IMG/VR virus record: IMGVR_UViG_3300032243_001145
Coordinates: 32,001-96,000 of that record
DNA length: 64,000 nucleotides
Strand: one strand, 5' to 3'
From: a virus
Taxonomy: Duplodnaviria > Caudoviricetes
The translations under genes were made by a program, and so were the position numbers. The notes under the pieces were generated by a model. It saw only the letters and a list, made by a program, of their open reading frames with translations, was not told the DNA's origin and did no database searches. Each line of letters begins with the position of its first letter. Within the stretch, counting starts at the first letter, position 1. Shown piece after piece: positions 29,201 through 63,394 of the stretch.

Positions 29201-32200
29201 TCTCCAATCATATCTGATGCGGCAGATCTTATAACGGCATCTAATGCATCTGGTTCAATACCACGCTTTAAAGTTCCATCTGCCATGTGCACGTAGCCAT
29301 AAGGTTTTTCTTTTGCTAATGCTGCTGCAAATTTATCATAAAATAATTTTTGAGTATATTTTCTTAAACCTGTGCTTGCAAATAAAGTTTCGGCCATTTT
29401 AATAGATAATGAATTTACACCCCATGGAGCTGACTCAAAAGTGCTTGGCTTGGGTTCCCCTGTTGGTCCATATCCAGCACCAATTCTTTTCATTGCTTTT
29501 CCTTTAAGAACATTTCCAAGCAATCCTCCAATTCCAAATTGATTTGTGGGTGATCCATTAAATAATCTTTGAGCAAATTTTCCTGAAATTTCTCCGCCAG
29601 AATTTCTTCTAATAATTTTAAGTGCGTGACTTACTCCGCTAGAAGTAGTAAGTAATGTGGCAAGATTTGTGCCTCTAGCCCAAGCAGGAACTCTAGAACC
29701 TATTGTTCTATTTTCACTAACCCAAGTTAATCTTCCATCTCTTCTTTTAACTATTTGACCTTTTTGAGATGATCCTGATATTGACCCTGATATTAATCCA
29801 CGTCGTATTGCATCGTCTTTAGTTAAAACTTCTTTTGCTCTAGTAGTAAATATTTGAGAAATTGCAGAATATAGATTTCTTCTTCCGCCTGCTTTTGATG
29901 AATCAATTTTTATTCCACGCAGGGCTGGTGCAAATATTTCTTTAGCTAATTGCTCAAAACCAAATGGATTTCCTTTTCCACCAATCATCTTGCCTGCATA
30001 TTCTGGACTTTCTAATTTAGCAATTAATTCTTGAAGTGCAACTGAATTTCTTCTTTGTGCTTGCTCAAAATCGCCGCCTAATGTTACTGCAGCTTCGTTC
30101 ATTAAACTACTTGGATCTATTCCAGCGTCTAGGGTTTTTCTTATTAAATTTGCTATCTGACTTCCATAAAGACCGCTACCATTAGAATTTACTCCAAGAT
30201 TTAATTCTCTTGGTAATAATAATGCCATGCCACTAAGATCTTCTGTAATATGTGTTCTTTGTAATGCTAATTTTTTATTTTCTAATAATCCACCACGTAT
30301 ATGCATTCCACTGCCTGAAGTATTTCCTACTCCGCCATTTAATTGGTACATTAAAGGCATATTTTTTTGAGCAAAGCTTGCTGGGATTACGGCTTCTCCA
30401 GGGGTTAATACTACTGGTACCTGACCGCCTTCTTGTGCATAATAAGATTTGCTTCCAAGTATATTAGTTATAAGAGGCAAATGCTTTTGAGTAGCAGCTT
30501 TATTAATTACAAATGATCCAGGCTCGGCTGTTGTGTGATAGGTATCTGTGTTTCCAGTCCCTGGAACAATTCCACCTTTGTTAAGTCTAGGTTTTGTTGT
30601 TTCTATATTATATCCAGCTCCAGAAGTTCTTACTCCTGCAAGAGCTCTTGCAATTCTATCCACCATTTCTCTTGTAGGGCCTTTATGAAACATTTCTTTC
30701 ATATTTGCTTTTCCAGTTACTGGATCAACTACTGGCTGTGAAGTTAAAGGAACAGTTGTTAAATTAGCTGTTCTTCCCATACTTGTTGCTGTCATTGCCG
30801 CTGTTTCTGCAAGCATTGCTTCTACTGTTGCATTTAATGAAATAATTTTTGCTCTTGCTGCTTCAACAGTTATTTTATTTGCTTGAACTTCAGCTACAAT
30901 TGCTTGTACTTCTTGTGCTGCCAATTCTGTTATTTGACTAAACTCTGGCAGCAATGCTTGATATGAATCAGATAAACTTGCTGTAATAGTTCCTGTTGCC
31001 ATAACTTCTTTTTTAAGTATTGCAAGTTCTTCTTCAGACTGCATTGAAATTGCAGCTGTCATTGAATGCCATTTAGCAGCTTCAGATGCAACAATTCCTG
31101 TTGATACTCCACCTATTGATGTAAGCCCTGGAATCTTTGGAAGATCTTGATTCATATAAGCTTGTGGATTTCTACCAACTCTTATATTTACTGGCTTTGC
31201 TCCTGGCACTGTTCCAAATATTGTTCCTGCTTGTGGATTTCCTGATGGAATTAGATGAGACATATCTCTAGAATATGGAGATCCAACTAGTGGGTGATCT
31301 TTATCTACAACTCTTCCGCTTCCAGGTGTCCCTGCCATAATGACTCCACCTGCAACTGTTGAAACTGCTGGCTGAACTGAAACTTTTGCTGCATTTGCTT
31401 TTGTTTCTAAATTTATAAAAGATTCAGCTAATGTGTTTACTGCATTTGATAAAACAATTGTTGCTTCTGAATCTGAATAAAAAGATGTTGCTAAACCTTT
31501 TGCAGCTGCATCAGCAGCCATAATTTCAGGAGTTAATAGTTTAAACCCTTGTCCGCCTTTTGCAAGTTGTCTTAAATGAAATATTCCTTTTACAACATAA
31601 CCAATAAAGTTACCCATAACACCAGCCATCATAATAAGTGGCCCAGCAATTGCTGTTAATCCACCCAGAACATTAAGGAATGTTTTAACTGGTCCTGGAA
31701 GATGTTGAAAAAATTTAACAATTGCGTCTACAACTTTTAATACCTTTGTACTTATTTTTAAGAACTGCTCGCCAGTTGAAGCTAGGTCTGCTTGAACTGA
31801 AGCTAAAGCTCTTTTAAATTGACCAGACGCAGACTCTGTCATTAATTTTAATTCTCGTTCTGATATGCTTGCAAGGTCTGAAGCACTTGCTTTCATAAGG
31901 TCCATTACTTGAAGTGTTTGAGAGCCTTGCTTGCCTAAGTTTTCAAACAATGCAGACATTCTTGCAAACTGGAATTTTCCAAATAGCTGTTCAATTGCTC
32001 TTGATTTATCTAGCGGGTTAAGTTGATCTAAAGCTGATTGCAAATCTAATATTGTTTGAGTTAGGTCTCCTGCATCTTTTGTTACAATTCCTCGTAAATC
32101 AATTCCAAATCCTGAGAACAATTCTGTTGCAACTTTAGTTGGATTAATAAGTGATGCCATTGCTGATTTAATTGCATTTGCACCTTCTGCAGCGTTTACT

Positions 32201-33291
32201 CCACCTTCTTTCATTGCTGTAAGATAAAGTGCTAAATCTTTTACATCTCCGCCCAATGCTTTAATTACTGGACCAGCTTTAGGGATCGCTTCTGTTAAAT
32301 CTGCAAGACTTGTTGAAGTTTGGTTTTCAACTGCGTTAAGAAAATCAATTGATTGTGTAAGTTCATCTGTATTCTGTTTAAATGCATTTTGAATAGCAAG
32401 AGTTGCTTTCATTGCATCTGCTCTATCTACTTCACCAAGCACTGCAAGTCTTGTAGTTTGCTGTGTTGCTTGAAGTAATTCATTTCCTTGTTTTCCAGTT
32501 GCCGCCAGGTCAGCTGCTAAAGAAATAGTATCTTTATAAGCAACTCCATATGAGCTAGCAATTTCTCTAGCTGTGGCTGAAACATCTTTTCTAACTTGTG
32601 CTAAATCAGCAGAAGATGTTGCTGCAAGACCACCATAAACTTTTGTTAGTCTTACTAGCTCTGCATCCGCTTCTCTAAAAGCTTTTTGTGCCGCTGCGCC
32701 AAATGCAACAAGCGGAACTGTAAGTCCAACAGTTAATTGACGTCCTGCCCATTGAGTATTTTTACCCCAGTTAATAAGTCCTGTTGCACCATCAAGCATA
32801 ACTTTATTCATGATTGCTGCCTCTTGGCGAGCAAGAGCCATCTTGTTCTTTACTTCATCAAGACCTTTTGCAACCATTACGTTATACTGCATTAAACCTT
32901 GTGCATTTTTACCAACAGGTTGAATTATTGCTTGCTCAAGCATTACTTGTTGCTTAGCAAGATCTTTAATTAATGTGCTTGTTTTTCTTGTATGACCATT
33001 CCAAACGTTATAATATTCGTTAAGTTTTAGTCGGCCTTTATCTAAATTCTTACCAAATTTTTCTACGTCTGAAGATAGTGATACAAAATGTTGTGAAAAT
33101 TGTCCAGTAGAAGTAAGTGTCGTTGCAAACGACTTGTTCATTACTGCAATTTGGTTTGCGAGTTTTGCGTTTGTGCCAGCAGTAGTTTCTTGCAGTTTTA
33201 TGAGTTGGGCAGTAACCGCAGCTAATTGAGCTCTTAAACTCGTGAAGTCTGCGTGGGCGGTAATATTGGTTGTTATTATATTATCTGCCAT
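23206..33291 (-). CDS. Tape measure protein, 3361 aa, with C-terminal metallopeptidase-like and lysozyme-like cargo
   Basis: N-terminal TP901-type TMP core, follows tail chaperones, GPGTGTSDSIPALLSNGEYV motif, HEFGH, QEGG...NPLNTT. Confidence 0.93.
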   Translation of the reverse strand: MADNIITTNITAHADFTSLRAQLAAVTAQLIKLQETTAGTNAKLANQIAVMNKSFATTLTSTGQFSQHFVSLSSDVEKFGKNLDKGRLKLNEYYNVWNGHTRKTSTLIKDLAKQQVMLEQAIIQPVGKNAQGLMQYNVMVAKGLDEVKNKMALARQEAAIMNKVMLDGATGLINWGKNTQWAGRQLTVGLTVPLVAFGAAAQKAFREADAELVRLTKVYGGLAATSSADLAQVRKDVSATAREIASSYGVAYKDTISLAADLAATGKQGNELLQATQQTTRLAVLGEVDRADAMKATLAIQNAFKQNTDELTQSIDFLNAVENQTSTSLADLTEAIPKAGPVIKALGGDVKDLALYLTAMKEGGVNAAEGANAIKSAMASLINPTKVATELFSGFGIDLRGIVTKDAGDLTQTILDLQSALDQLNPLDKSRAIEQLFGKFQFARMSALFENLGKQGSQTLQVMDLMKASASDLASISERELKLMTESASGQFKRALASVQADLASTGEQFLKISTKVLKVVDAIVKFFQHLPGPVKTFLNVLGGLTAIAGPLIMMAGVMGNFIGYVVKGIFHLRQLAKGGQGFKLLTPEIMAADAAAKGLATSFYSDSEATIVLSNAVNTLAESFINLETKANAAKVSVQPAVSTVAGGVIMAGTPGSGRVVDKDHPLVGSPYSRDMSHLIPSGNPQAGTIFGTVPGAKPVNIRVGRNPQAYMNQDLPKIPGLTSIGGVSTGIVASEAAKWHSMTAAISMQSEEELAILKKEVMATGTITASLSDSYQALLPEFSQITELAAQEVQAIVAEVQANKITVEAARAKIISLNATVEAMLAETAAMTATSMGRTANLTTVPLTSQPVVDPVTGKANMKEMFHKGPTREMVDRIARALAGVRTSGAGYNIETTKPRLNKGGIVPGTGNTDTYHTTAEPGSFVINKAATQKHLPLITNILGSKSYYAQEGGQVPVVLTPGEAVIPASFAQKNMPLMYQLNGGVGNTSGSGMHIRGGLLENKKLALQRTHITEDLSGMALLLPRELNLGVNSNGSGLYGSQIANLIRKTLDAGIDPSSLMNEAAVTLGGDFEQAQRRNSVALQELIAKLESPEYAGKMIGGKGNPFGFEQLAKEIFAPALRGIKIDSSKAGGRRNLYSAISQIFTTRAKEVLTKDDAIRRGLISGSISGSSQKGQIVKRRDGRLTWVSENRTIGSRVPAWARGTNLATLLTTSSGVSHALKIIRRNSGGEISGKFAQRLFNGSPTNQFGIGGLLGNVLKGKAMKRIGAGYGPTGEPKPSTFESAPWGVNSLSIKMAETLFASTGLRKYTQKLFYDKFAAALAKEKPYGYVHMADGTLKRGIEPDALDAVIRSAASDMIGDKFVLKQLSPIDKEILKTKYLNWESRKDTPLTETLKKLIFSLEGRAAGGPVNAGQPYIVGEKGPELFVPRNAGGIVPNNYGIGGQIVAGLGISAIANMIASKITNPLLSMIVQQAGYMLPMMLSPSLGGSTKGIIGRGLTKVGLGKTTTPLAFSNKNPGEMTKFGTALAKAESSGTKFGSMISKVGLGLTRFNLISAVVIGGLLFAKNRWDANTESMRLNALGYGMTEEAAKKAGLRFRDFNKSLKESVETAKAVRQQNQLLYQSMTGSGTPLKITIAEFKKLKKTVKTDFADQIKLIDKTSADDQIALAERLKTMFIGMGMSSEEATKKIYAMYTVSKNFSSSASLYTVSSEGFNKIKTSVDAAAAAIKLYNKTVHEGRDGTEQANAFITANSAILTAIEEQQAEALKKRKKDKTKPTFISTADKNVIMLDAEVAAIEKISKAQRYQKTVSQATLKEMEKTNPVLREIADLHDTNISLMQKQRLIAKGFTLDMRGLSAAQTDQVYRFNIAITKSIESVAKNGFLQKQYKHLDGLKQLQEKYTKAMKGQSVAQQISDRDKLSALQKQIDANNKLADARIKALDAAKKEGDIGREIAKAQARYQAALATGNTADAQQASLDMQGLQSDLQYNAQVKAIEDATTLKNAPLLKQIELIQKKQQDVADAAAYASEKFGDVSKKIDDEESAITKLITAMANYRTAIDAHKDDLAKWKTSPEATSMLAAITEAATAIKVNLTPYPVDPATGKPGVDAATGLMSALETSLIKAGLVVNGDLYINSKKVGGAQVATAGAVADPSNLAGKRTGAGTKNNPYEYSNAAGAKITEKQFMSMPYEQPGSLAEFILPLSGMSNREFINLLQAQMLFLQKNNNKPSYVVGDLIFHHNGSVTRDKAVVGRWFSPLPGGGEKVKSYETGGKVVGPGTGTSDSIPALLSNGEYVIKEKAVRKYGIQHFDNLNAQKFADGGIVNNFLSNQVDTTATSTGESMGGPFGLLGRGMQDLGSLGYEMLQSTINSGKYLAGSAFGKTNWMSAEDEDMYQKAILEYQKGNKAGAYGKIMGRAAMSALNLYPKILPWNKIWAQAGMKDLPGMTEALLANIPSSIPDIYSHYFGKKKRKYAEGGLVPNINRLDIYNPYHESVYKNVGGNDTIDQTKDVLSGKFTDSEKKVSEFMHSWVGLLNTYYGAKYQNLFKMNGKPSLLETPIVTDLEVTDPRNWLSMMGGEPGFSWRDINDPVGTMLYVQPTSTQANLPNIILPDKNNQHLKYQPIPGAKKNFDFKTYSEYINKQILTNDESKMSLLSILNHEFGHSMVTRLKESGIFGNDRISSKLFKDKFGKPLKNEGDGKQYYDMLNEINADLLSGQIMSEMFNAGYMNNIVKSESVTKYLKAHYTKAAPDLSKTNTDIDPHTDDSHPQDSNIRFAAYLQGFKNKNTDIGLADYFGVTPGDLFGDTAKAKAMVADLSNFQLKSNKFDENAQTAMPDLLNTDYAKILGLKISGKPSVKNKALEIRTPHDFGVALITALGGTPTENLLGGIQAWAMQEGGHWQNRALYNPLNTTLEMPGSTKVNTVNAQTGTGVQAYTSWDQGLDAVLQTLKFPNHGYEDIISALTNSKSTDLKEFYSAINKSDWGHPKYTFDINNKLHQRMTKYNPDKPFGTDPNNTNEYYSKLPGQDDGMIILPFNPDKNTDKNTDQPGGNNYDTQEDPWDKPTIPNYWPEGEKFYNPKQTVIDHIEYAYPLIPFKEFNSGTLQTATNQIPKQRTRSGISIAASNGVYNMFKWGGKTWAKAMSSGDEIFELEDFPVTSVAGNKVADATVKNVIDRPYGEPFYYYPNGGIGTTAQKLDLPGTNIPTVFEMLQNTIEKFFLTRNGDTGFKNGKMNRRDTKDFMTFNYNAYPDSILQKFSNGGLAIPKFQTGINNVPANMLAMLHKNEAVIPANMNPFNPNANNATMSGGVYNITNNINGYDGDLEQLSSMVTQKTITAIKTLDARTAKMTGPTMTVGIK

Positions 33292-44442: not shown

Positions 44443-45564
44443 CTACTGCTCTTCTAGTATTTTTACTCTTGCTGTAAGCTCTTGTACCGCTTTAATTAAT
44501 GGAGAAATAAACTCTTCGTATCTCAATGCCTGTTGACCCTCTGGGTCAGCGACATCTGATATTACCCATCCGCCAAAGTCTGCTACTCCAGCAGCATCTA
44601 ATACTGATTTAACTTCTTGTGCAATTAAGCCATAATGCGTTCTGCTTCCATCTATCTTATTATACTTAACAGGATTAAGGTTATTTATAAAATCTAAACC
44701 AAGGTCTGATGTTATTATGTTTTCTTTTGTTCTTGCATCAGATATCACTGTGGCTGCGGAATTTAAATATATGTTTTTCCAGCCTCTTGTTGTGCGCTGG
44801 TCTCCAGGTGGATTCAATGGGCCCATTAGACCTAACGAATAAAGATTTGTGGTTAAAGGAAACCAGTTTGAATTTACTCCTATTGTGGAAATATCTGTTG
44901 CTGAGTAATTTAATGAAATTCTTGTAGCAATAGGATCTATGTTTGCATTTGTTCCAGCTGGTCCTGCTGGTCCAGTTGCTCCCGCTGCACCGTCAGCACC
45001 ACGGGGTATTGTAAAGTTTAAAACTACATTACTTGATGTTCCAGTATTTGTAACAATAGCGTTTGTTCCTGCTGCACCTGTAGTTACTGGGCTAGCAATA
45101 GTAATTGTTGCTGCTGCATCACCTTTTGGACCAGTTGCTCCAGTTGCTCCAGTTGCTCCAGTTGCTCCTACTGGTATAACAAAATTTATTGTTTGTGATG
45201 GAGATGTCCCAGTAATAGAAACTTGTGGTTGTGTTCCTGGGGCTCCAGCGGTTACTGTTCCAGGAGTTAATACATTAGCTGGGCCTGGGCCACCTAAAAC
45301 TCCATCAGCACCTCTTGGGATATTAAAAGTTAAATGTTGCGTTGGCGCTGCACCACTAATATACACAGAAGCTTGCTCTCCCGCAGAAATCGTATTAGTT
45401 GCAATTACATCCAAGGCATTAGCAGGACCTGAAGGCCCTTGTGGGCCTGGATGTGCAGCAATATATGCAGCAATATCATTTCCAAGAATACCAAGATCTC
45501 TAGGAACGTCGGGTGAGTCCGTGTAAGTTGGAAAGTGCCATCCATTAACGCCTGTAGTTGCCAT
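44443..45564 (-). CDS. Collagen-like fibre protein with C-terminal S74 chaperone
   Basis: Gly-X-Y runs, three FxIPxG modules, SDARTKENI...LNPVKY...GLIAQEV...LIKAVQEL. Confidence 0.87.
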   Translation of the reverse strand: MATTGVNGWHFPTYTDSPDVPRDLGILGNDIAAYIAAHPGPQGPSGPANALDVIATNTISAGEQASVYISGAAPTQHLTFNIPRGADGVLGGPGPANVLTPGTVTAGAPGTQPQVSITGTSPSQTINFVIPVGATGATGATGATGPKGDAAATITIASPVTTGAAGTNAIVTNTGTSSNVVLNFTIPRGADGAAGATGPAGPAGTNANIDPIATRISLNYSATDISTIGVNSNWFPLTTNLYSLGLMGPLNPPGDQRTTRGWKNIYLNSAATVISDARTKENIITSDLGLDFINNLNPVKYNKIDGSRTHYGLIAQEVKSVLDAAGVADFGGWVISDVADPEGQQALRYEEFISPLIKAVQELTARVKILEEQ

Positions 45565-45581: not shown

Positions 45582-46241
45582 TTACTTTTTATATACTGAA
45601 ATTGGAGACATAAACCTGGAACCACTTTTAATATTAGATACTCCATGTTTATAGGGTTCTACTGAAGGGAACATTATAAGGCTGCCAGCTTTTGGCTTTA
45701 AGTCTATTCCATGTCCAGGAAAATATATTTCTCCACCTTCATAATCATCATTTAGATATGTAACAATAGAAAATGAAAGTCCTTTATGTCCGTCTTGATT
45801 ATCACAATGTGGTCCCATACCTTCACCAATATTCCATTTTCTAATTGGAATCATATTAAGGTCTAGATCGTAATCGTCTTTATTTAATCCATGACCATCC
45901 ATATATTTTACAAAACACATTTCTGTAGCCATAATAAAGCTATTTGATATATATTTAATTTTTTGATCTAGTCTTTCATCACCAGATGTTTGTGATAGAT
46001 TTGAAGTTTTTATAATTTTACTTGATCCATAAATATGATCGTTTTTATTACTGGATATCCAGTCTTCCCATTTAGTTATTGATCCATGAGATTTTTCTAA
46101 TAAATCAACCTCATTAATAAAATTAAGAAGCTCTTCTGGATAACTTAAAACATTTTCAAAATACCAAATATTATTTTCTAAAACCGTTAAATCAAACATG
46201 TGATACATTTTTTGTGCCATTTCATCTTGGCTACTAATCAT
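45582..46241 (-). CDS. 2OG-Fe(II) oxygenase, prolyl-4-hydroxylase-like
   Basis: HCD...YLNDDYEGGE...KPKAGS...HGV...R. Confidence 0.9.
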   Translation of the reverse strand: MISSQDEMAQKMYHMFDLTVLENNIWYFENVLSYPEELLNFINEVDLLEKSHGSITKWEDWISSNKNDHIYGSSKIIKTSNLSQTSGDERLDQKIKYISNSFIMATEMCFVKYMDGHGLNKDDYDLDLNMIPIRKWNIGEGMGPHCDNQDGHKGLSFSIVTYLNDDYEGGEIYFPGHGIDLKPKAGSLIMFPSVEPYKHGVSNIKSGSRFMSPISVYKK

Positions 46242-46995
46242 TTTTTTTAACCTCTTTTACTGGAATTTTTTCTCCAGTTGGAGTTAGAACTAAACCTTTT
46301 TCTCTAACCTCTTCCCAAACTTTTTGTTCTTCTTTTTGATAAGCTCTTACTCCTGCAAGTTCTTTTGCCCACTGGTCTCTAATCTCTTGTGGATAATCAG
46401 ACTCTTCTCTATCATCCCAAAATGATCCCAAAGTATATCTTTCTTTTTCTTTTACAACTGTAACTTCGTGCATATTTTTATGTCCACCATGAAATATTAA
46501 AAATGATCCTGATTTTGGAGTAATTTCCATTGGGTCTTTACCGTCTTGAAAGTAAAACTTTAAAGTGCCACCTTCAAAATCATCATTTAAATACAAAAAT
46601 CCTGCGTATCTACTTCTAGTAAATGCTCCCATTTTGCCTTCGTTATCGCTATTGTCAGAATGCTTTGGAGCAAATGCTCCTGGTAACCACCTTTGACTAT
46701 GAAAACTTATTTTTGACATTTTTTCTACAGGCTGACCTGCAACTTCAGCGGCAGCTTTTTTAAATCTTTCTTGAGTGTCTGTAAACCAAGTTGAGCTTAA
46801 GCCTACTTCTGATAATATAGGATCGTTGTCTGGTGGGTACATAGCTGAGTATGATTCATAAAAAGAAATGCCTTTCCAGTAACCAGGATCAGCTTCTTCA
46901 AATTTTTTAAAAATTTTAATTACTGCATCACATTCTTCTTTTGTAATAAAATTATCATATTGAAAAATGTCTTCTGTTAGCTTAGTAAGTTTCAT
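46234..46995 (-). CDS. 2OG-Fe(II) oxygenase, prolyl-4-hydroxylase-like
   Basis: HSD...YLNDDFEGG...HEV...RYT. Confidence 0.9.
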   Translation of the reverse strand: MKLTKLTEDIFQYDNFITKEECDAVIKIFKKFEEADPGYWKGISFYESYSAMYPPDNDPILSEVGLSSTWFTDTQERFKKAAAEVAGQPVEKMSKISFHSQRWLPGAFAPKHSDNSDNEGKMGAFTRSRYAGFLYLNDDFEGGTLKFYFQDGKDPMEITPKSGSFLIFHGGHKNMHEVTVVKEKERYTLGSFWDDREESDYPQEIRDQWAKELAGVRAYQKEEQKVWEEVREKGLVLTPTGEKIPVKEVKKND

Positions 46996-47815
46996 TTTTG
47001 TTCTTTTCTTTTGATAAAATTTCTTTATATTCTTCATATTCTACTGGCTTGCCATCTTTTAAATAACGCATATTTCTTGGATCATCATAATCAATTCTTT
47101 CTGATTCCATCTTTGCCCATCTATATGCTCCCCATTTTAATTGATTGTCTAGCCATTCTTTTGTTCCAGGAAAAGTGTGCATAATAAAATTTCTTACAAA
47201 AAACTTTTCTCCATTATGAATTGTCTTTACACCGTGATAATATGGCTCTATTGATGGGAAAACAACAATATCTCCTGCTTCTGGCTTATGATTTGTAAGA
47301 ACTCCATCTACATAAAATTCAATATCTCCGCCATCATAATCATCATTTATATACATTGTGCATGTTATAAAAAACTTTTCTCCTGGAGCATCTTTTTGTG
47401 ATGTGATGTGATCTGTGTGATACTGCATTGTCATGTTATTGCTTAATACATCAACCTGATCAAAATATTTTGAAAAAGAACATCCACTAAATCTCCATCC
47501 TTCTGGCAATTCAACATTTGTTTTTTCAACATAATCCATGATTACTGCATTGTAGGCTTCTTGAATTTCATCATAAAAAGCTTTTTCTTTTATATACATA
47601 TCTTGAGATTTATCAATTTGCTCAGTCTCTCTATCGTCTTTTATTTGACTGTAAGTTCCAAAGTGTGCCCACTGGTCCCATTTTTTTAAAAAATATTTTC
47701 CTTCAGAAGTTTTTTCAGACTCTTTCATAACTTCATAAAGATTTTTTACATCTTTTAAAACATTTTTGTAAACAAAAACTTTAGGGTAGATTTCATTATA
47801 TTCTAAATTATTCAT
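46982..47815 (-). CDS. 2OG-Fe(II) oxygenase, prolyl-4-hydroxylase-like
   Basis: HTD...YINDDYDGGD...HGV...K. Confidence 0.9.
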   Translation of the reverse strand: MNNLEYNEIYPKVFVYKNVLKDVKNLYEVMKESEKTSEGKYFLKKWDQWAHFGTYSQIKDDRETEQIDKSQDMYIKEKAFYDEIQEAYNAVIMDYVEKTNVELPEGWRFSGCSFSKYFDQVDVLSNNMTMQYHTDHITSQKDAPGEKFFITCTMYINDDYDGGDIEFYVDGVLTNHKPEAGDIVVFPSIEPYYHGVKTIHNGEKFFVRNFIMHTFPGTKEWLDNQLKWGAYRWAKMESERIDYDDPRNMRYLKDGKPVEYEEYKEILSKEKNKNETY

Positions 47816-48489
47816 GGTTGTTTTTCTCCTGTGTGCTTCATTATTGTCCAAAAAAATGGTGATGTAAATCTATTTCCAGATCTTACTGGTCTTACCCCGT
47901 GAGTGTAAAATCTATCCCCTGGGAAAAAATAAGCTGCGCCAGCTTTTGGTTTAAACTCTATTCCATGTTGTGGAAAATAAAGCTCCCCACCTTCATAGTC
48001 ATCGTTAAAATAAAAAAGTCCTGCTATGTCGTAGTGTGGGAAATCGTTTGGCCTACCTTTTTCAATTCCAGTATGAAATTCTTTGTCGGCATGTGGTTCT
48101 TGTCTTGCTCCAACAGGCCATCTAACAATTGCTGGACCAGTCTCTCTAACATCAACATTAAAAAATTTATCAACTTCTATTTTTAATCTTGCAATCATAT
48201 TGTTAATTAAATCTAATATTGTTGGATCCGACGCCATAAGAGATTTATATGTGCAGACTCTGTCTTTCCAAACATCTGCATCGTATAAAACTAATCCGTC
48301 TTCATCTACATGAGTCTCTGTTTTGTCCCATATTTTATTATTTAAAGCAAAATCCATTAATCTTTTTCTTTCATCAATACTAAGAAAATTTTCTAGCTCA
48401 ACAATATTTTCTGAGGATGATCCAAAAAAACCCGAAGGAGTCATTGATTTGGGTATGTGCATATGTAAATCTTTATTAACTATTTCCAT
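47812..48489 (-). CDS. 2OG-Fe(II) oxygenase, prolyl-4-hydroxylase-like
   Basis: HAD...YFNDDYEGGE...HGV...RFT. Confidence 0.9.
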   Translation of the reverse strand: MEIVNKDLHMHIPKSMTPSGFFGSSSENIVELENFLSIDERKRLMDFALNNKIWDKTETHVDEDGLVLYDADVWKDRVCTYKSLMASDPTILDLINNMIARLKIEVDKFFNVDVRETGPAIVRWPVGARQEPHADKEFHTGIEKGRPNDFPHYDIAGLFYFNDDYEGGELYFPQHGIEFKPKAGAAYFFPGDRFYTHGVRPVRSGNRFTSPFFWTIMKHTGEKQP

Positions 48490-48531
48490 TTTTTCTCTTT
48501 TCGGTATTGTGTTTTGCTTTTGGTATACTTA

Positions 48532-48540
48532 ATTTTACCA
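48532..48540 (-). promoter_or_regulatory. Internal extended -10 promoter upstream of four tandem oxygenases
   Basis: TGGTAAAAT in the largest gap (56 nt) of the cassette. Confidence 0.5.
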
Positions 48541-48545
48541 TATAA

Positions 48546-49241
48546 TTAATTAATTTCCTGTATTTCAAATTTAAAGCTATTAATCTCATGTTTTCCTATT
48601 TTATTTCCTTCGTGATCTATTGCTTTTTTGTACCAATCTGAGGTTCTAGAATTAATCCTGCCATACTCTGTCATTGCCTCTACATAATCAAACCCGTGTA
48701 TTACATCCGTAGGAGGAGTATCATTAATAATTGCCGTTGAGTTATTAATTTGAGATAAAGATATTGGAACAATTGCTGCAACTGGTGTGCCAGCTTTTAT
48801 TGTTATAACTTTATTTGGAGATGTCACTTTCCAAACAATATGTAAAGCACCAGTATAAAATGAAGTAGAAATTATTGATGTAAAACATTGTGCTCCATCT
48901 ACAAATTGATTTGGAACTGGAATAGATAGGAGGCTAAGATTTTCATTTGTTTTAAAAACTAAATTTGTTGGAAAGCCTATAACTCCTCCGCCTCTTTCAA
49001 AATAACAATGTTCTTTTCCAGACAAAACTTCAATATCTCCATCATGGCCTTCTGTTGATTTGCCTTTCCAAATAAAAGAAATATCAACTGGAAAGGATAT
49101 ACCAAAACCCATTTTATTTGGAAGTGTTATTGGAAAACAGTTATATGCATATTTATTTTCATGCATCCATTCTCTATTGGATTCAAGTGGTGACAGTATT
49201 GTTTTTGGACCTTCTGTTTTATAAACATAAACTTTATTCAT
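48546..49241 (-). CDS. DUF6065-like protein
   Basis: REWM...AYNCFPITLPNKMGFGI, VPNQF, IGKHEI. Confidence 0.75.
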   Translation of the reverse strand: MNKVYVYKTEGPKTILSPLESNREWMHENKYAYNCFPITLPNKMGFGISFPVDISFIWKGKSTEGHDGDIEVLSGKEHCYFERGGGVIGFPTNLVFKTNENLSLLSIPVPNQFVDGAQCFTSIISTSFYTGALHIVWKVTSPNKVITIKAGTPVAAIVPISLSQINNSTAIINDTPPTDVIHGFDYVEAMTEYGRINSRTSDWYKKAIDHEGNKIGKHEINSFKFEIQEIN

Positions 49242-49938
49242 TATTTTTGTTTACCTTAAGCCTTATAGCCTTAACTTGATGCTTTCCTATAGAGTTGCCT
49301 AGATGATCTAATGCATCTCTATAAAAATTTGTCCACTTGCCAGTTCTGTTTATTTCATATACAAAATTTGCATATTCATTTGAATTAAAAGATTTTGGCG
49401 GCAAAGAACTAATTTCTTCAAAATTTATTTTTGAGTCTTGAAGATCTTCTAAATTAATAGGCAAAATAGAAAAAATTGGAGTGTTTGCTTTAATTGTTAT
49501 TTCAATATTTGGCCTTGTAATTCTTAATGCACAGGGAAGCTCTCCTCTAAAAAAAGAAGAGCTAATCAAAGTAGTAAATGGCTGAATTCCGTCTCTTAAA
49601 TAATTTGGAACAGGCATAGTCAAAATGCTATAATTGCTTTCAGTTTTAAACATTATTCCTGTATTAAAGCTTACGGTTGAATTTCCTCTTTCTGCATAAG
49701 CATATTTTTCTCCTGCAAGTATTTTAACATGCTCAGCACTGGAATCTGAAATTCCATCCCATATAAATGTTATATCTTCTGGAAAAGATATGCCCCACCC
49801 AAGTTGATTTGTTAAACTTATTGGAAAACATTTATAAGCATGTGCTTCCCAGGTTTCATCCATCCAATCTCTTTTAGCTGAAAGCTGTGATATGTCTGCA
49901 TAACCTTCTCTTATTTGATAAGCTTTAATTTCTGGCAT
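49234..49938 (-). CDS. DUF6065-like protein
   Basis: RDWMDET...HAYKCFPISLTNQLGWGI. Start moved to MPEIKA. Confidence 0.78.
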   Translation of the reverse strand: MPEIKAYQIREGYADISQLSAKRDWMDETWEAHAYKCFPISLTNQLGWGISFPEDITFIWDGISDSSAEHVKILAGEKYAYAERGNSTVSFNTGIMFKTESNYSILTMPVPNYLRDGIQPFTTLISSSFFRGELPCALRITRPNIEITIKANTPIFSILPINLEDLQDSKINFEEISSLPPKSFNSNEYANFVYEINRTGKWTNFYRDALDHLGNSIGKHQVKAIRLKVNKNNE

Positions 49939-50584
49939 TTCTTCTTTCAACCATACTTCTATATTCATCATTATGAGCATTATCATTATAGTCAAGCATT
50001 GTAACAATAGAATACTTTGTTCCTTCTTTGACAGGCATAGCTATATGAGAATAAATATATGTAGATGGAAAAATATAAAGATCTCCAGCTTTTGGCTTAA
50101 CTGTAATATTTAATTTTGGAAACGCTAGTTCTCCTCCCAAATATTCTTCATTTGGATAAGCCACTAAAGAAACTGTTGAACTATAAGAAAACCCATGATC
50201 AGCATGTTCTTGAAAATGTTGTCCTGGACCATATGAAATAAAATTCATTACTTCCCAAAAATCCATCCTTACATTATGTGCAGCGCAATAATCTTCAGCT
50301 GCTGGGCCCTGTACTTTTTTTGCCAACTTCCATATTTCATTTAATTCATAATCATATTCATTTTGAGGATATTCTATGGGGCCTAATTTTATATCTTTGC
50401 AATCTCTATAGTCTAATTTTTTTTCATTGTATCCAACAGTAGCATCTCTCCATGAATAGCCACCATTGCTTTTGTCAATTAAATTAACTAGGCGTTCCAT
50501 TAAATTTAGTTCTGGTTTTACAACATCTCTATACACCCAAAGTCCTGGAAATATTATTTCTTTTGTAGTCCACGTTTGTTCCAT
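49925..50584 (-). CDS. 2OG-Fe(II) oxygenase, prolyl-4-hydroxylase-like
   Basis: HAD...YPNEEYLGGE...H...GTKYS (Lys as the 2OG ligand, as in P4H). Confidence 0.9.
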   Translation of the reverse strand: MEQTWTTKEIIFPGLWVYRDVVKPELNLMERLVNLIDKSNGGYSWRDATVGYNEKKLDYRDCKDIKLGPIEYPQNEYDYELNEIWKLAKKVQGPAAEDYCAAHNVRMDFWEVMNFISYGPGQHFQEHADHGFSYSSTVSLVAYPNEEYLGGELAFPKLNITVKPKAGDLYIFPSTYIYSHIAMPVKEGTKYSIVTMLDYNDNAHNDEYRSMVERRNARN

Positions 50585-50598
50585 TTTTTCTCTTTCTC

Positions 50599-51177
50599 TT
50601 ATTTATATTCTAGCATATCATTTGGCAATATGTCAATAATTATATGTACTCTATCAAAATCAGTTGGGTTAGAAACAGAATGAAGCATTTGATTGTTTAT
50701 TTCGTACCATCCGCCTTCTTCCATATGTATAGTATTGTCCATTACAGTAAAAGTTATTAATTTTTTTGTAATTATAGGAATATGTACTCTTCTTGAATAA
50801 TGAAGTAGGGCTCCACCATCAACGTGTTTTCTTATATAAGATTTAGATTTTAATTTAACAAACTCACATCTTATTATTTTGCCAGAATAATAGTTTTCTA
50901 AATCATTAAAAATTTTTTTAAGTTCTTTATTTGATAATTCATTTTTAAGAGAATTAACATAATTAGTTTTAATTGGATCACCAACAGCCCATTCATAATC
51001 TGTTTCACAAATTCTAAACATTTCCGTGTCTGTGTGCGTGTATCCTTTTTTTTGTCTACTTTGATCTAAAAGCCATTCTTCAGAAAATTTTTCAATTTCA
51101 TTTTTTATTTCTTTGACTTCAAATTCTCCTAATTTTAAAATTGACCATTCAGTATTCTTTTTTAATCTTTTGTACAT
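50599..51177 (-). CDS. Aspartyl/asparaginyl beta-hydroxylase-family 2OG oxygenase
   Basis: HVD...RVHIPI...EINNQMLHSVSN...RVHIIID. Confidence 0.85.
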   Translation of the reverse strand: MYKRLKKNTEWSILKLGEFEVKEIKNEIEKFSEEWLLDQSRQKKGYTHTDTEMFRICETDYEWAVGDPIKTNYVNSLKNELSNKELKKIFNDLENYYSGKIIRCEFVKLKSKSYIRKHVDGGALLHYSRRVHIPIITKKLITFTVMDNTIHMEEGGWYEINNQMLHSVSNPTDFDRVHIIIDILPNDMLEYK

Positions 51178-51856
51178 AATCGTACATCTCCATATCTAAT
51201 GAATTTAACTCTTTGATTTTGTCTATGTGTTTTTTATTAAATTTAATTCCTACATCATAAGAAGAATTTGCTTTATCCGAATGCTTAAACGTCATAAAAC
51301 CAAACTCTTTTAATAAACTTTTATTTAAATCTATTTTAAATTGATCAAGCTCATCTAACGTATAAGCTTTCATTTTTTTAATATTTAAAATTACATCTTT
51401 TATATTTAATTTATATTCTTCTAAATACCAAGCACTATTTACTGTATTTTGAAATTGTAAGACATCTTCATTAAATTTTTCTATATTTAATTTACCAGTT
51501 AAAAATTTTGATTGTAAATTAGATTGCATTGTAGACTCTTCTCCATAAAGCCATCTATCTAATTTTTCTTCAGCTTCTTTTCCTGTTCTTTTTGGCCCTG
51601 TTGTATATTTAAAGTAGCTTATAAATCTTTCTACTGGGTCCCTAACTATTGTAAAAATTTCTGGGTTTTCCATATATTCTAATGGCATCAATCCAAAATG
51701 ACCACCTACAAATTTACTTTTTTTAATTTTTTCTGTGTCTATTTTAGTTCTATTTGATATAAAATGTTCTACCCCATTTGATATCAAATGGGGTATTACA
51801 TTATTTTTTATGTATATGCCAGATGTTCTTGGAATATGCAAATGATATATTGACAC
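51149..51856 (-). CDS. Sulfotransferase family 2-like protein
   Basis: 5'-PSB-like HLHIPRTSG, GHFG, 3'-PB-like RDPVERFISY, C-terminal NSLDMEMY. GTG start overlaps the upstream stop (TAGTG). Confidence 0.8.
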   Translation of the reverse strand: MSIYHLHIPRTSGIYIKNNVIPHLISNGVEHFISNRTKIDTEKIKKSKFVGGHFGLMPLEYMENPEIFTIVRDPVERFISYFKYTTGPKRTGKEAEEKLDRWLYGEESTMQSNLQSKFLTGKLNIEKFNEDVLQFQNTVNSAWYLEEYKLNIKDVILNIKKMKAYTLDELDQFKIDLNKSLLKEFGFMTFKHSDKANSSYDVGIKFNKKHIDKIKELNSLDMEMYDYVQKIKKEY

Positions 51857-53190
51857 TAAAACCCTTTACGGTTGTGTACTATCAGGTCTCCTGCAATTAA
51901 AATATCGTTTGGAGAAGCATCAAATTCATAAACGGTTCTTTCTTCATTTATAATTTTTGTTGATTCTACCATTACCTCTTCAAAAATATTTTCATTATTT
52001 TTTACAAATATAGAATCTCCTGGTTCAATAATTCCTGTTGTACTAAAGAAATATGTGCCTTTCTTTTTTGTAAGAATGGTTTGTTCTAGTGAGAATCTCT
52101 TAGAGTAATCATCATTAATAATCATGGTTGCATCTTTTATAGAAGATTTTATTGTTTTAATTTCAGATTTTACTAAATGAATATTATTAATTGATTCTGA
52201 TGACCATGTGTATGGATCTATTGCAAACTCGTCCATCTGACCATCCCATGTAGCTGACCATATTTGATCTCCGATTTGCATTTCTTTTGCTTTTTTAAAT
52301 CCTATCAGATCTCCTGGTGTAACTACCATTATTAGTGTGTCTTCATCAATACACCAGAAGCTTGGTGGTGAGAAGAAGCTTGGTGGTGAGAAGAAGGTTG
52401 GTGGTGAAAAGAATCCTGGTGGTGAAAAGAATGTTGGTGGGAAGAACGGTGGTGAGAAGAAGCTTGGTGGTGAGAAGAAGCTTGGTGGGAAGAACGGTGG
52501 TGAGAAGAAGCTTGGTGGTGAGAAGAAGCTTGGTGGGAAGAACGGTGGTGAGAAGAAGCTTGGTGGGAAGAACGGTGGGAAAAACGGTGGGAAGAACGGT
52601 GCAAGTGTTGTAACCTGATTAGAGCCAGCAGACTCTAATGAAACCCCATTTGCATTTGTAGCTTTCACATAATATGTTTGCGATGTATTAGCAGTTTCAG
52701 CAACAGTATATGATGTTGATCCTGTTGAATATGTTGGGCCATCGCTTGATCTTAGTGTGTAAGTTGTTATTCCCTTTCCGCCATCTGCAGGAGCAGACCA
52801 AGAAACATAGTCTTGATTTACCTGGGCTGTTGCAGATGGAGCGGAAGGGGTTGCTGGAACTGTAGTTGATGTTATAGCAGTAGATGCTGAAGAATCAGGT
52901 GATGTTCCATAAGAATTTGTTGCTGTTATTGTAAATGTATAAGAAGTGGCAGAAGCCAATCCTTCTACTACTATAGGGGATGAGCTTCCTGTTGCTGTTT
53001 GACCACCAGAAGAAGTGACTGTAAATGATGTTGCTGGATAAGTTCCGTCTGGAGTAAATGATACAGTAGCTGCACCATTATTGTATGCCCGATTTGTTCC
53101 TATATCTGTTGCAGATACATTTGTTGGAGCAAATGGAGCTAGGAAATTATCCTGTCCTGATGATTTAATACCAAATTTTTTGTTAGCCAT
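51856..53190 (-). CDS. 2xFN3 - (PPxFF)n repeat - Hint (intein-like) domain protein
   Basis: Two FN3-like domains, about 82 aa of Pro/Phe/Ser repeat, then C-IDEDTLI...VYEFD...LIVHN-RKGF. Confidence 0.85.
   Translation of the reverse strand: MANKKFGIKSSGQDNFLAPFAPTNVSATDIGTNRAYNNGAATVSFTPDGTYPATSFTVTSSGGQTATGSSSPIVVEGLASATSYTFTITATNSYGTSPDSSASTAITSTTVPATPSAPSATAQVNQDYVSWSAPADGGKGITTYTLRSSDGPTYSTGSTSYTVAETANTSQTYYVKATNANGVSLESAGSNQVTTLAPFFPPFFPPFFPPSFFSPPFFPPSFFSPPSFFSPPFFPPSFFSPPSFFSPPFFPPTFFSPPGFFSPPTFFSPPSFFSPPSFWCIDEDTLIMVVTPGDLIGFKKAKEMQIGDQIWSATWDGQMDEFAIDPYTWSSESINNIHLVKSEIKTIKSSIKDATMIINDDYSKRFSLEQTILTKKKGTYFFSTTGIIEPGDSIFVKNNENIFEEVMVESTKIINEERTVYEFDASPNDILIAGDLIVHNRKGF
52354..52599 (-). 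repeat. In-frame tandem repeat of 12-nt (PPFF) and 18-nt (PPxFFS) units
   Basis: Perfect 48-nt higher-order unit at 52441-52488 and 52489-52536; 15 FF dipeptides plus a terminal FW. Confidence 0.95.
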
Positions 53191-60705: not shown

Positions 60706-62934
60706 CTAGTATTGTATATAAATATCCCCAGCAACCATTCCTGTAACAGGTAATGTGCCAGTATTATTATAAAATGTTTTTGCGCCACCAGATATTGTTG
60801 TAGTTCCTCCGAGTGCTACTGACGTACCGTTGATTGTTATAGATGAATTTGCTAATTTATTATTTGCTATTGATCCAGCAAGCATTGTATTTGTTACAGT
60901 TGCAGAATCTAAAAGTGTAACTGCTGTTCCAGATATTTTAGATTTATCAATTGCTGCTGAAGCATTAATATCTGCGTTAACAATAGTTCCATCAGCAATC
61001 ATAGCTGATGTAATAGTGCCTGATGGGGCAGAAAAAGTACCAGTAAATGATGCATTATTAATTGGTGCATAGGCTGCTAAATTAAGATTTGCCCAAGATG
61101 ATGATGTACCATCAGTTGTTAAATATTTTCCTGCATTATTTAATTGTGCTGGTAGTGCTGAAATACCAGTTACCGTTGCACCCGAAAAATCTACTGTTCC
61201 AGTAAATACTGGTGAGGCTTTTGTTGCATAGGTTGATGATGCAATCGACGTAGCTAATTTAGCATCTAAAGCTGTTTGAGTTGCACTAGATATTGGCTTT
61301 AATGCATCTGTTGTGTTGTCAACATTTCCTAAGCCAACCATTGATTTTGTAATACCAGCAACCGTGCCAGTAAATGTAGGGGAAGCAATTGGTGCATAGG
61401 TTGATGCAGCTGTTGCTGAAGACAGCTTGGTTCCAACTAATGTAGTTAATGAAGATGCAGCTGTTTGATCTGCTGCAATATAATCTGAAATTTCCTTTAG
61501 TGTGTCAAATGTTGCAGGAGCTCCATTAACAACAGTTGCTATTTGCGCTGCAATGTCAGAAGTTCTTGCAATTGTATTAGGGATAACAGAATCTAAAATT
61601 GTACCGCTTACTACTCCAAGCTTTGCATAGCCTCCTGGCAGATTTGCTTCTGCTTCAATTACATAACCATCTAATGTATTTGCCAGTGTGGTATTGTTAG
61701 TAAAATTAGTATTTACATATGTAAGCATTGATTCAGATGCTTGATTGACATTTACATAAACGTCTGTGAAACGTGAAAGGTTTGCAATCTGCGCTCTTTC
61801 ATTTGTAAAGTAAAGGTTTGTTGTTCCTTCTGTTACGTTATCAGAGTTTCCGCTAAAACTAGACCCGCTAGTTCCTGCTGCGCCTTGTGGAATTGTAAAA
61901 TTAAGAATTGCGGCAGAAGTTGTGCCCGCATTTGTAACAATAGCTGAAGAGCCTGGCGCACCTGTTGTAACAGTTCCTATTGCTACTGTTGCTGAAGATC
62001 CATTTGTGCCATTTGTACCAGCAGGTCCTGTAAGACCTGTGTCTCCTTTTAATCCCTGCGGACCAGCTGCGCCAGTTGCGCCAGTTGCGCCAGTTGCGCC
62101 AGTGTCGCCCTTTAATCCCTGCGGACCCACATCTCCACGAGGAATTGTAAAATTAAATAATGCCGCAGTTGGTGTTCCAGTATTTGTAATAGAAACAGAT
62201 GTTCCTGGGTTTCCAGTTGAAACTGTTCCAAGCGTAATTGTAGACGATGCTCCACCTGAAGATAATCCAGAAACAGCTGCATTAATTGCAGTATTTCTAT
62301 TTGTAATTTCAGTTGAGATTGCAGTATTTATTGCAGTATTTCTATTTGAAACTTCTGTTGTAATTTTATTATCTGTGTATGTATTTGCAGTAGAGATAGC
62401 AGATGCAGCTGAAATAATATCTTTGGTGTCAGATGCAGCTGCTGCTGTTAAAATTGCTGCAGCTTGAGCTGCATTTGCTTTATTTGTAGCATCGCTTGAC
62501 GCTGTATTAATTGCTTCAGTTTTTGCTGTGGATATAGCTGTATTCCTATTTGAAATTTCTGTTGAAATTGCGCTAACTATGGAGGCAGAAACCGCATCTA
62601 TAGCTCTTTGGTTTGTAAAATATTTATTTGTTGTACCTTCTGATATGGAGTTAGTTGTTAATGTAGCAATTGCAGCATTTAAATCAACTCCTGCTGAAAT
62701 AGAATCTGGAAGTTGTGAGGTAGGTATTTTGCCAGCTGAGTTAAGTGTAGCGATTCCATTGGCTTCGCCAACTTTTAATGCATAAGAGGTTGTGGCATTC
62801 CATCTTGAACCATTACCAATTTTAAATTTAAGGGTATCTGTTTCAATACCAAGTTCACCTTGTAATAAGATTGGATTGTTAGAAACCCAATTTGCTGCAG
62901 TGTCTCTTCTAAGTTGTATTCTTAATGATGCCAT
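60706..62934 (-). CDS. Fibre protein with Mtd_N-like domain and collagen-like segment
   Basis: IQLRRDTAANW...GELGIETDTLKFKIGNG; GPQGLKGDTGATGATG; EGTTNLYFT. Confidence 0.82.
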   Translation of the reverse strand: MASLRIQLRRDTAANWVSNNPILLQGELGIETDTLKFKIGNGSRWNATTSYALKVGEANGIATLNSAGKIPTSQLPDSISAGVDLNAAIATLTTNSISEGTTNKYFTNQRAIDAVSASIVSAISTEISNRNTAISTAKTEAINTASSDATNKANAAQAAAILTAAAASDTKDIISAASAISTANTYTDNKITTEVSNRNTAINTAISTEITNRNTAINAAVSGLSSGGASSTITLGTVSTGNPGTSVSITNTGTPTAALFNFTIPRGDVGPQGLKGDTGATGATGATGAAGPQGLKGDTGLTGPAGTNGTNGSSATVAIGTVTTGAPGSSAIVTNAGTTSAAILNFTIPQGAAGTSGSSFSGNSDNVTEGTTNLYFTNERAQIANLSRFTDVYVNVNQASESMLTYVNTNFTNNTTLANTLDGYVIEAEANLPGGYAKLGVVSGTILDSVIPNTIARTSDIAAQIATVVNGAPATFDTLKEISDYIAADQTAASSLTTLVGTKLSSATAASTYAPIASPTFTGTVAGITKSMVGLGNVDNTTDALKPISSATQTALDAKLATSIASSTYATKASPVFTGTVDFSGATVTGISALPAQLNNAGKYLTTDGTSSSWANLNLAAYAPINNASFTGTFSAPSGTITSAMIADGTIVNADINASAAIDKSKISGTAVTLLDSATVTNTMLAGSIANNKLANSSITINGTSVALGGTTTISGGAKTFYNNTGTLPVTGMVAGDIYIQY

Positions 62935-62935
62935 T

Positions 62936-63394
62936 TTATGAACCTCCTGCATCAACAATTATACCATCGTTGTCTGCAGAACTTCCTCCTTCTAGAACTT
63001 CGTCTTGTACTACTGTAACGCTGCCTTCTGGGTTTCCGCCATCAAGCAATGTTTGGTTTTCAAATGTTCCGCCTTGGTTTGATGTTGAAGGACTTTGTCC
63101 GTCGTATCCAATTACAAATGGTAATACTAGATCGGGAGAATCTGAAGTATTTGTTTCATTAAATGTAATCTTATTCTGAACATCAATTGTATGAACATTT
63201 CCATCAAATGTGTGAGTATGCATATAAAATGGTGTTGGGTCTGTGCTTGGCGGGGTAAGCTCTACCCAAACCATACCATTGTATATTCTTAAATTCTTAC
63301 TTATTACATTGAAGTATATATCTCCAACAGTGGCTATGTCGGGGTTCTCCATAGAAGTAAGAAGATTAAGTGCAACCTTCATTTGTCTGGACAT
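62936..63394 (-). CDS. Small acidic virion protein
   Basis: GDIYFN...LRIYNGMVWV; DGG repeats. Confidence 0.65.
   Translation of the reverse strand: MSRQMKVALNLLTSMENPDIATVGDIYFNVISKNLRIYNGMVWVELTPPSTDPTPFYMHTHTFDGNVHTIDVQNKITFNETNTSDSPDLVLPFVIGYDGQSPSTSNQGGTFENQTLLDGGNPEGSVTVVQDEVLEGGSSADNDGIIVDAGGS

Follow-up and report, generated by a model that had tools for sequence, protein, structure and literature searches.

The window analysed here is a stretch of 64,000 nucleotides (bases 32001-96000) from the virus record IMGVR_UViG_3300032243_001145, a complete genome of 115,319 bp with direct terminal repeats, in which a block of ten genes encodes a protein with a proline- and phenylalanine-rich repeat together with a set of putative tailoring enzymes. 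All genes of the region lie on the minus strand, and the block runs from 53190 down to 45582 with junctions that are either overlaps of 1-29 nt or gaps of 14-56 nt. The first gene, here called REP, encodes an FN3-FN3-(PPxFF)n-Hint protein and is followed by genes for a sulfotransferase, an AspH-family oxygenase, a prolyl 4-hydroxylase (P4H)-like 2-oxoglutarate (2OG)-Fe(II) oxygenase (OXY1), a pair of DUF6065 proteins and another four P4H-like oxygenases (OXY2-5; Table 1). An earlier note, made from the letters of this DNA, had described this layout and placed it among fibre genes, and both descriptions hold: the open reading frames (ORFs) have the coordinates, strand and Pfam families claimed, Mtd_N-type tail-fibre genes (one with collagen repeats) lie upstream, and downstream come a collagen-like fibre with a Peptidase_S74 chaperone (44443-45564), a LamG protein, the portal and the prohead protease. 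A scan for promoters and terminators returned counts at chance level, from which operon boundaries are not callable. The portal is 57% identical to those of the ~127-kb Streptomyces phages Muntaha and BillNye, and on this kinship the phage probably infects freshwater Actinobacteria; the sequencing runs that contain the stretch are freshwater or unspecified DNA metagenomes only, with no RNA run among the runs listed.

Pfam recognizes one fn3 domain in REP (E 6.7e-6), and a match to Intein_splicing stays below threshold (13 bits). The second FN3 module has no Pfam call and is probably present, judging from a repeated W-S-A-P...Y-x-V-x-A-x-N pattern and from homologues with three or four such modules. 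The repeat comprises 82 residues of PPFF and PPxFFS units, its DNA shows periods of 12, 15, 18, 30 and 48 nt (Tandem Repeats Finder), and the length of the tract differs even between near-identical relatives (98 aa against 140 aa in L021 and L029). Of the 55 Pro-Pro dipeptides in the whole genome, 15 fall in REP, which is the only protein of its kind there; the second most Pro-Pro-rich ORF, of 114 aa with the run PPNPPPPPP (window 18904-19248, minus strand), is another conceivable hydroxylase target. The REP family has more than 855 matches, mostly on contigs of 100-120 kb, and within its constant architecture the repeat type varies by lineage (PPxFF, FPPYFPY, FSPFSVFG, FTPY(S/A) or FTPFGAFG). 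Some relatives encode a second fibre-block protein of about 875-1024 aa whose C-terminus, with or without a Hint domain, carries the same repeat type as their own REP and in which Pfam finds only a weak PASTA match; since the repeat type is common to both proteins, the repeat, alone or with Hint, is best seen as a portable C-terminal module. From its gene position alone, we infer that REP is a virion protein that may serve in adhesion or shielding.

The C-terminal part of REP is a domain of 165 residues that follows ...PPSFW and starts at Cys280. Searches of PDB sequences with phmmer gave no usable match for this part, for DUF6065 or for the sulfotransferase. An AlphaFold2 (AF2) model built from 33 homologues (predicted local distance difference test score, pLDDT, 90) matched inteins, bacterial intein-like (BIL) domains and Hedgehog autoprocessing domains in Foldseek with E values of 3e-7 to 1e-5 and template modelling (TM) scores of 0.6-0.8, among them the RadA intein (E 2.9e-7), BIL2 (6y75), the BIL domain 2lwy and Hedgehog (1at0/6tyy), and Cys280, the Cys1 nucleophile, is invariant among the 33 aligned homologues. 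The fold, together with the invariant Cys1, confirms the Hint call of the earlier note. A splicing intein was considered and ruled out by the Arg at +1 (where Cys, Ser or Thr would be needed), by a tail of only RKGF and by the absence of the block-B TxxH motif, the position of which reads SLEQ. With the block-B His replaced and Arg following the terminal Asn, cleavage or transfer of the upstream chain is possible but splicing is not, and on sequence and modelled fold the C-terminus of REP belongs with Hint/BIL-like modules of the cleavage type, not with inteins. At two loci of close relatives (L013 4100-4897 and L014 9986-10783), a clean deletion has removed the Hint domain, the sulfotransferase and the AspH-like gene, so that REP stops exactly at the Hint junction (...PPGFWD*) while the P4H cassette is kept, which fits removal as the normal fate of Hint.

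OXY1-5 match 2OG-FeII_Oxy_3 (PF13640) with E values of 1e-8 to 1e-12. As had been read from the sequence before, all six oxygenases of the block keep HxD and the distal His, and they also keep a basic residue about 10 residues further on; in the five PF13640 proteins HxD lies at residues 127, 133, 145, 126 and 145, each followed by the distal His and an Arg or Lys, and the predicted iron and 2OG ligands of OXY1 are H127-A-D, H180 and K190. In comparisons with the PDB, for which OXY1 was the oxygenase profiled, the best matches were to the Bacillus anthracis P4H (3itq/5hv0; E 1e-4 with the single sequence and 9e-8 with the profile) and, with the profile, to the P4H 5c5t of the chlorovirus PBCV-1 (E 1e-3), followed by PiuC and the lysyl hydroxylase LH3. 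By these matches the cassette oxygenases are collagen-type P4H-like, with prolyl hydroxylation as their putative activity. A structure prediction that combined the OXY1 alignment with iron and REP residues 196-250 scored 0.01, a value that counts neither for nor against binding. Far from the cassette, the window holds another PF13640 oxygenase, of 296 aa, with a weak C-terminal match to DUF1233 (excisionase-like; 2676-3566, minus strand).

The two DUF6065 proteins match PF19541, and an AF2 model (pLDDT 93.9) consists of a dUTPase-like barrel and a helical C-terminal part. VIA-align superimposed it on the dUTPase 1dun with a Z score of 10.8 (109 residues, root-mean-square deviation, rmsd, 2.9; Foldseek E 2e-4), on thirteen dUTPases in all with Z scores of 10.8-8.3 (about 110 residues, rmsd 2.4-5.4), and on dCTP deaminases with Z scores of 5-6.6. 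In the sequence alignment, the residues invariant in the family are W23, C35, G45, D53 and P158, which do not obviously spell the five conserved dUTPase motifs with their catalytic Asp and C-terminal P-loop-like element. Relatives of the phage contain two subfamilies: DUF6065-A is confined to loci with Pro-Pro-type repeats, and the divergent DUF6065-B, of about 242 aa, is missed by Pfam or stays below its threshold; an alignment spanning both is too divergent for a locus scan. Outside this group, tblastn found no DUF6065 match in cultured phages at 1e-3, a protein atlas search returned unnamed viral clusters only, a profile search gave only close phage relatives among the matches listed and found no bacterial context, a scan of genome contigs recovered only metagenome-assembled genome (MAG) contigs that resemble phage DNA, and DUF6065 was mentioned in none of the papers found.

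The evidence that ties the repeat to the enzymes comes from the distribution of both across related phages. Based on searches with the window proteins, we compared 86 loci around REP homologues (about 60 after dereplication) and, in the reverse direction, loci anchored on DUF6065-A, both sets drawn from the best 80 of roughly 500 REP and 570 DUF6065-A contigs. All loci of the Pro-Pro type (Pro content about 0.30-0.38, at least 4 kb of downstream sequence) have 3-9 PF13640-like genes and at least one DUF6065-A gene; loci with single-Pro repeats (FSPFxVFG, FTPY, FTPFGAFG) have 0-2 distant oxygenases, and DUF6065-A occurs in none of them. Six further contigs, three of the Pro-Pro type (FPPYFPY, PPFF/PPYF) and three not, agree. 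Starting from DUF6065-A in 76 new viral loci, we found that all 62 of the 62 that could be assessed carry, on the same strand and 0.7-2.6 kb upstream, a Pro-Pro/aromatic repeat, as do six of six assessable MAG contigs (68/68 together), 14 of the 76 viral and two of the eight MAG loci being too short upstream to judge. Repeat and P4H-like/DUF6065 cassette were thus decoupled in none of about 130 related loci, an unbroken pairing that makes the repeat the likeliest candidate for the substrate. The cassette order OXY1-(OXY1')-DUF6065A-(DUF6065B)-OXY2-3-4-5 is conserved at portal identities down to 54%, although the paralogues in relatives are only 31-87% identical to those of the window, indicating that the paralogues are old and individually retained. 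Genes near the cassette, namely the sulfotransferase/AspH pair, the collagen-like fibre, the Hint domain and extra oxygenase copies, are gained and lost among the same relatives. The co-occurrence that the earlier note proposed to test was therefore found in both directions for the P4H-like and DUF6065 genes, whereas the sulfotransferase and AspH genes are distributed independently of the P4H cassette.

We put the probability that the adjacent Pro-Pro repeat is the substrate of the P4H-like cassette at about 0.5. The pairing in about 130 loci, the collagen-type P4H-like character of the enzymes and the 15 of 55 Pro-Pro dipeptides speak for this relationship, and several observations weigh against it. 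In a portal tree of 30 loci, Pro-Pro type and cassette together occupy one side of a single branch (100% support in the Shimodaira-Hasegawa-like approximate likelihood ratio test, SH-aLRT), so that one ancestral event is enough to account for the perfect pairing; a tree built from the FN3 region of REP shows 4-5 joint changes of both traits, with long branches and a sign test of p = 0.125. Repeat and cassette adjoin each other, and linkage also favours their co-inheritance. DUF6065-B stands behind REP in FTPY-, FSPF- and FTPFG-type phages that lack Pro-Pro repeats, known proteins with the dUTPase-like fold of DUF6065 act on nucleotides, three further PF13640 genes lie elsewhere in the genome, and no Pro/aromatic repeat gene was found in the neighbourhood of the oxygenase array of the cyanophage Syn9, which includes a DUF6065-like gene. 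What remains is co-retention: in a deep and otherwise plastic clade, no lineage has lost only one of the two partners.

These points lend themselves to an explanation by co-inherited neighbours, in which the oxygenase/DUF6065 array would be an accessory island in a plastic stretch between fibre genes and portal, with host proteins, small molecules or pools of 2OG as its targets, the Pro-Pro repeat being simply this clade's version of REP. Such an island would need only the one change in the portal tree, would have parallels in the multi-copy 2OG oxygenases common in aquatic phages (PMC3037559) and in the repeat-free Syn9 array, and would sit well with the other PF13640 genes and the separate sulfur/oxygenase island of this genome. 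We nevertheless regard it as somewhat unlikely, since the pairing has survived the turnover of adjacent genes in every locus, the enzymes specifically resemble collagen P4Hs and stand next to by far the most Pro-Pro-rich protein of the genome, and the genes are tightly coupled from REP onward. A different protein target, the collagen-like tail fibres (44443-45564 and 60706-62958), is suggested by their Gly-X-Y runs (44947-45000, 45115-45168 and 61993-62136), by the collagen-type nature of the closest solved relative of OXY1 and by a somewhat higher frequency of such runs in Pro-Pro-type loci (9/30 against 3/32), but 21 of the 30 loci with the cassette lack any collagen run within 10 kb, and many cassette loci do without the downstream collagen-like fibre. 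Collagen P4Hs, moreover, hydroxylate X-Pro-Gly, that is, the proline at Y, and in 170 triplets Pro occupies X 36 times and Y four times, never Y in this genome, which makes the fibres an improbable substrate.

No more credible is a cassette that modifies nucleotides or DNA, with DUF6065 as a dUTPase/dCTP-deaminase-like enzyme and the oxygenases hydroxylating bases. It would draw on the DUF6065 fold and its resemblance to both enzyme classes, and on the PHROG label 'DNA endonuclease' attached to some of these oxygenase families; the PHROG names, however, look like annotation carry-over, the oxygenases match protein prolyl and lysyl hydroxylases and not Tet/JBP or AlkB (Tet_JBP 12.8 bits), the block lies amid fibre genes and far from replication genes, and viral proteins without catalytic activity, pp71 and ORF10 among them, also have the dUTPase fold. 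Least plausible of all is the likeness, drawn in the earlier note, to a pathway for ribosomally synthesized and post-translationally modified peptides (RiPPs), in which small modified peptides would be cut from the repeat as a multi-core precursor. A repeat 'core' does adjoin tailoring enzymes and a predicted self-cleaving domain, but the precursor is a 444-aa protein with two folded FN3 domains and Hint, the block lacks a leader peptide, a recognition element and genes for a protease or an exporter, and in relatives there are fibre-block proteins of 900-1000 aa that terminate in this repeat-Hint module as well; on precursor size and missing components the analogy fails. A comparison with extensins fares no better, as Ser-Pro(3-5) is absent, the PPFF/PPxFFS unit has at most two consecutive prolines and the cassette includes no glycosyltransferase.

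The sulfotransferase and the AspH-like enzyme stand apart from this cassette. The former matches Sulfotransfer_2 near threshold (25.6 bits, cut-off 22) and a PHROG Gal-3-O-sulfotransferase, and carries a 5'-phosphosulfate-binding (5'-PSB)-like PRTSG at residue 9 and a 3'-phosphate-binding (3'-PB)-like RDPVERFIS at residue 72, which we take, from what is established for carbohydrate sulfotransferases, to be the motifs that bind 3'-phosphoadenosine 5'-phosphosulfate (PAPS). The AspH-like protein has HVD at residue 118, the distal His near residue 166 and a weak PDB match to the L-proline cis-4-hydroxylase 4p7w. The pair is missing from most Pro-Pro-type loci and follows REP directly in phages of the FSPFxVFG type, where no P4H array adjoins; since it is absent with the cassette and present without it, sulfation of hydroxyprolines made by the P4H-like enzymes is unsupported, and so is the proposed chain of hydroxylation and then sulfation. 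Presence of the sulfotransferase instead follows the C-terminal tail of Hint, which has the form x-K-x-F/Y at 13 of 16 loci with the gene and at none of 45 without it (window 51856-51870; loci L009-L094), with one exception outside that table (P0019/L099). As tail and sulfotransferase start are contiguous, linkage may explain this association, which could also be a functional tie; by its distribution, the pair is a separate two-gene module that tracks the Hint tail independently of the P4H cassette. PAPS supply is available from an adenosine 5'-phosphosulfate (APS) kinase in the genome (G000:11299-12060, PF01583 E 1.4e-15). Whether APS kinase tracks the REP-adjacent sulfotransferase was also considered and rejected (present in 3/5 phages with and 3/5 without it), and the APS-kinase match in an L013/L014-type genome carries an in-frame TAA.

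The APS kinase belongs to a sulfur island (G000:8138-15975) that lies 16-24 kb ahead of the window, and in this island it is fused to a weak cytidylyltransferase-like part and accompanied by two luciferase-like monooxygenases, a Sulfotransfer_1 protein, a short-chain dehydrogenase/reductase (SDR) and a PF13640 oxygenase. A third sulfotransferase is encoded at G000:104723-105355, making two outside the window in all. In the FPPYFPY-type locus L095 (LR798257.1), an APS kinase and a luciferase-like gene (9923-11427) come immediately behind the cassette and precede the portal. The structural region of the window also contains a single ORF of 3361 aa (23206-33291, minus strand).

Table 1. Features of the ten-gene block (window coordinates) and examples from related loci (coordinates within each locus)
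Feature	Coordinates	Strand	Evidence and remarks
REP, 444-aa FN3-FN3-(PPFF/PPxFFS)n-Hint protein, candidate substrate	51856..53190	-	Pfam fn3; >855 homologues of like architecture
Pro-Pro/Phe-Phe tract of REP, residues 197-278	52357..52602	-	15 PP, 16 FF; ends ...PPSFW before Cys280
C-terminal Hint domain of REP, Cys280...His-Asn, then tail RKGF	51856..52353	-	AF2 and Foldseek; invariant Cys1
PAPS-type sulfotransferase (putative), 235 aa	51149..51856	-	Sulfotransfer_2; start overlaps REP stop by 1 nt
AspH-family (Asp_Arg_Hydrox) 2OG oxygenase, 192 aa	50599..51177	-	Pfam E 1.9e-11
OXY1, P4H-like 2OG-Fe(II) oxygenase, 219 aa	49925..50584	-	Pfam PF13640; PDB P4H matches
DUF6065 subfamily A, 232 aa from ATG	49234..49932	-	Pfam E 9e-30; listed TTG ORF extends to 50007
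Second DUF6065, 231 aa, 38% identical to first	48546..49241	-	Pfam E 2e-25; alignment
OXY2, P4H-like oxygenase, 225 aa	47812..48489	-	Pfam; most conserved paralogue, 53-87% identity across relatives
OXY3, P4H-like oxygenase, 289 aa from listed TTG start	46982..47851	-	Pfam, motifs
OXY4, P4H-like oxygenase, 267 aa	46234..47037	-	Pfam, motifs
OXY5, P4H-like oxygenase, 219 aa; closes the cassette	45582..46241	-	Pfam, motifs
Long repeat-ending fibre-block proteins of relatives	L014 468-3542; L063 2424-5051; L074 1638-4397; L081 3162-5906		With or without Hint; Pfam: weak PASTA only
DUF6065 subfamily examples	L099 11320-12054; L047 12007-13454; L021 6763-7497		

A viral P4H encoded together with Pro-rich repeats is already known from PBCV-1, the P4H of which hydroxylates Pro-Ala-Pro-Lys repeats of a kind that the virus itself encodes (PMC3634087). 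That virus shares with the present phage a virus-encoded, monomeric PF13640-type enzyme and virus-encoded Pro-rich repeats, but it is a giant algal virus with one enzyme, whereas here a bacteriophage carries 5-9 diverged paralogues, the putative substrate lies directly upstream, is Pro-Pro/Phe-Phe and Hint-capped instead of PAPK, and DUF6065 and sulfotransferase genes are added. The B. anthracis P4H, the best solved relative of OXY1, has the same HxD...H...K core, although the alignment covers no more than some 100 residues of the catalytic core and that enzyme acts on Gly-Pro-Pro collagen-like peptides. Multi-copy 2OG oxygenases are likewise known from cyanophages, where modulation of 2OG or DNA repair has been proposed as their role (PMC3037559). 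Closest in layout is the array gp41-gp54 of Syn9, which lies directly behind tail-fibre genes and includes gp43, a match to the DUF6065-like phrog_7084 (E 8e-73), the Pfam DUF6065 profile itself having no match in Syn9; its oxygenases, however, are mostly of the 2OG-FeII_Oxy_5, JmjC and DUF6445 families and are joined by two flavin halogenase-like genes. The Syn9 array (L105 12966-23145) contains gp43, about eight oxygenases and the two halogenase-like genes, and its labels 'DNA endonuclease V', 'ferrochelatase' and 'minor coat protein' look like mis-annotation.

The Hint module of REP resembles BIL and Hedgehog domains (2lwy, 6y75, 1at0) in its predicted fold, Cys1, C-terminal His-Asn and lack of a homing endonuclease, and differs from them in the replaced block-B His, in the 1-5 residues after the domain, in the Arg at +1 and in its cargo, a low-complexity Pro/Phe polymer. 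As a C-terminal domain of a protein from the fibre block, one that should sever itself once folding is complete, it also recalls the Peptidase_S74 chaperones of fibres and endosialidases, which have another fold and another chemistry, a Ser-Lys dyad as opposed to the predicted Hint thioester. In cultured phages the cassette had no megablast match, and in the literature we found neither prolyl hydroxylation of a virion protein by a phage nor any FN3-repeat-Hint protein of a phage that is linked with DUF6065 and a battery of P4H-like enzymes.

Under the favoured explanation, the five collagen-type P4H-like oxygenases encoded next to REP, which diverged from one another long ago, would hydroxylate its Pro-Pro tract. 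The fixed order (OXY1, DUF6065, OXY2, OXY3, OXY4, OXY5) suggests that each enzyme may serve a non-redundant position or stereochemistry, and the DUF6065 proteins, with their dUTPase-like fold, could be accessory or partner proteins; hydroxylation of the Phe residues of the repeat, which had also been suggested, found no support. Hint would next form a thioester at Trp279-Cys280 and remove itself, so that the mature protein would end in the modified tract, and the sulfotransferase and AspH-like enzyme would act as a separate module, possibly with PAPS made by way of the phage's own APS kinase. A more far-reaching version appears doubtful to us: a tailored adhesive or anchoring polymer in which position-specific multiple hydroxylation, perhaps with a contribution from AspH and sulfotransferase, is combined with a Hint thioester that goes beyond cleavage and ligates the tract covalently through its C-terminus. 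The precedent is the Tetrahymena BIL2 domain, which joins the C-terminus of the preceding domain to lysines by an isopeptide bond without ATP (PMC8616854) and does so with ubiquitin-like domains; by analogy, a lysine on a different virion protein or some nucleophile of the host envelope could serve as the acceptor here.

Aquatic phages carry very many 2OG-Fe(II) oxygenase genes, for which no substrate has been established ever since cyanophage genomes first appeared. Here the locus supplies a concrete candidate for a protein substrate, encoded beside the enzymes in a lineage with hundreds of metagenomic members. If the repeat is hydroxylated as proposed, REP would be the first hydroxyproline-bearing phage protein and also the first case of a low-complexity virion polymer capped by Hint, and the cassette would give DUF6065 its first functional context. 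The separable sulfotransferase module, together with the phage's PAPS supply, points to a second, unexplored modification. Should the adhesive-polymer version also prove true, these phages would possess an enzyme-tailored, self-ligating fibre tip that has no counterpart among described phages.

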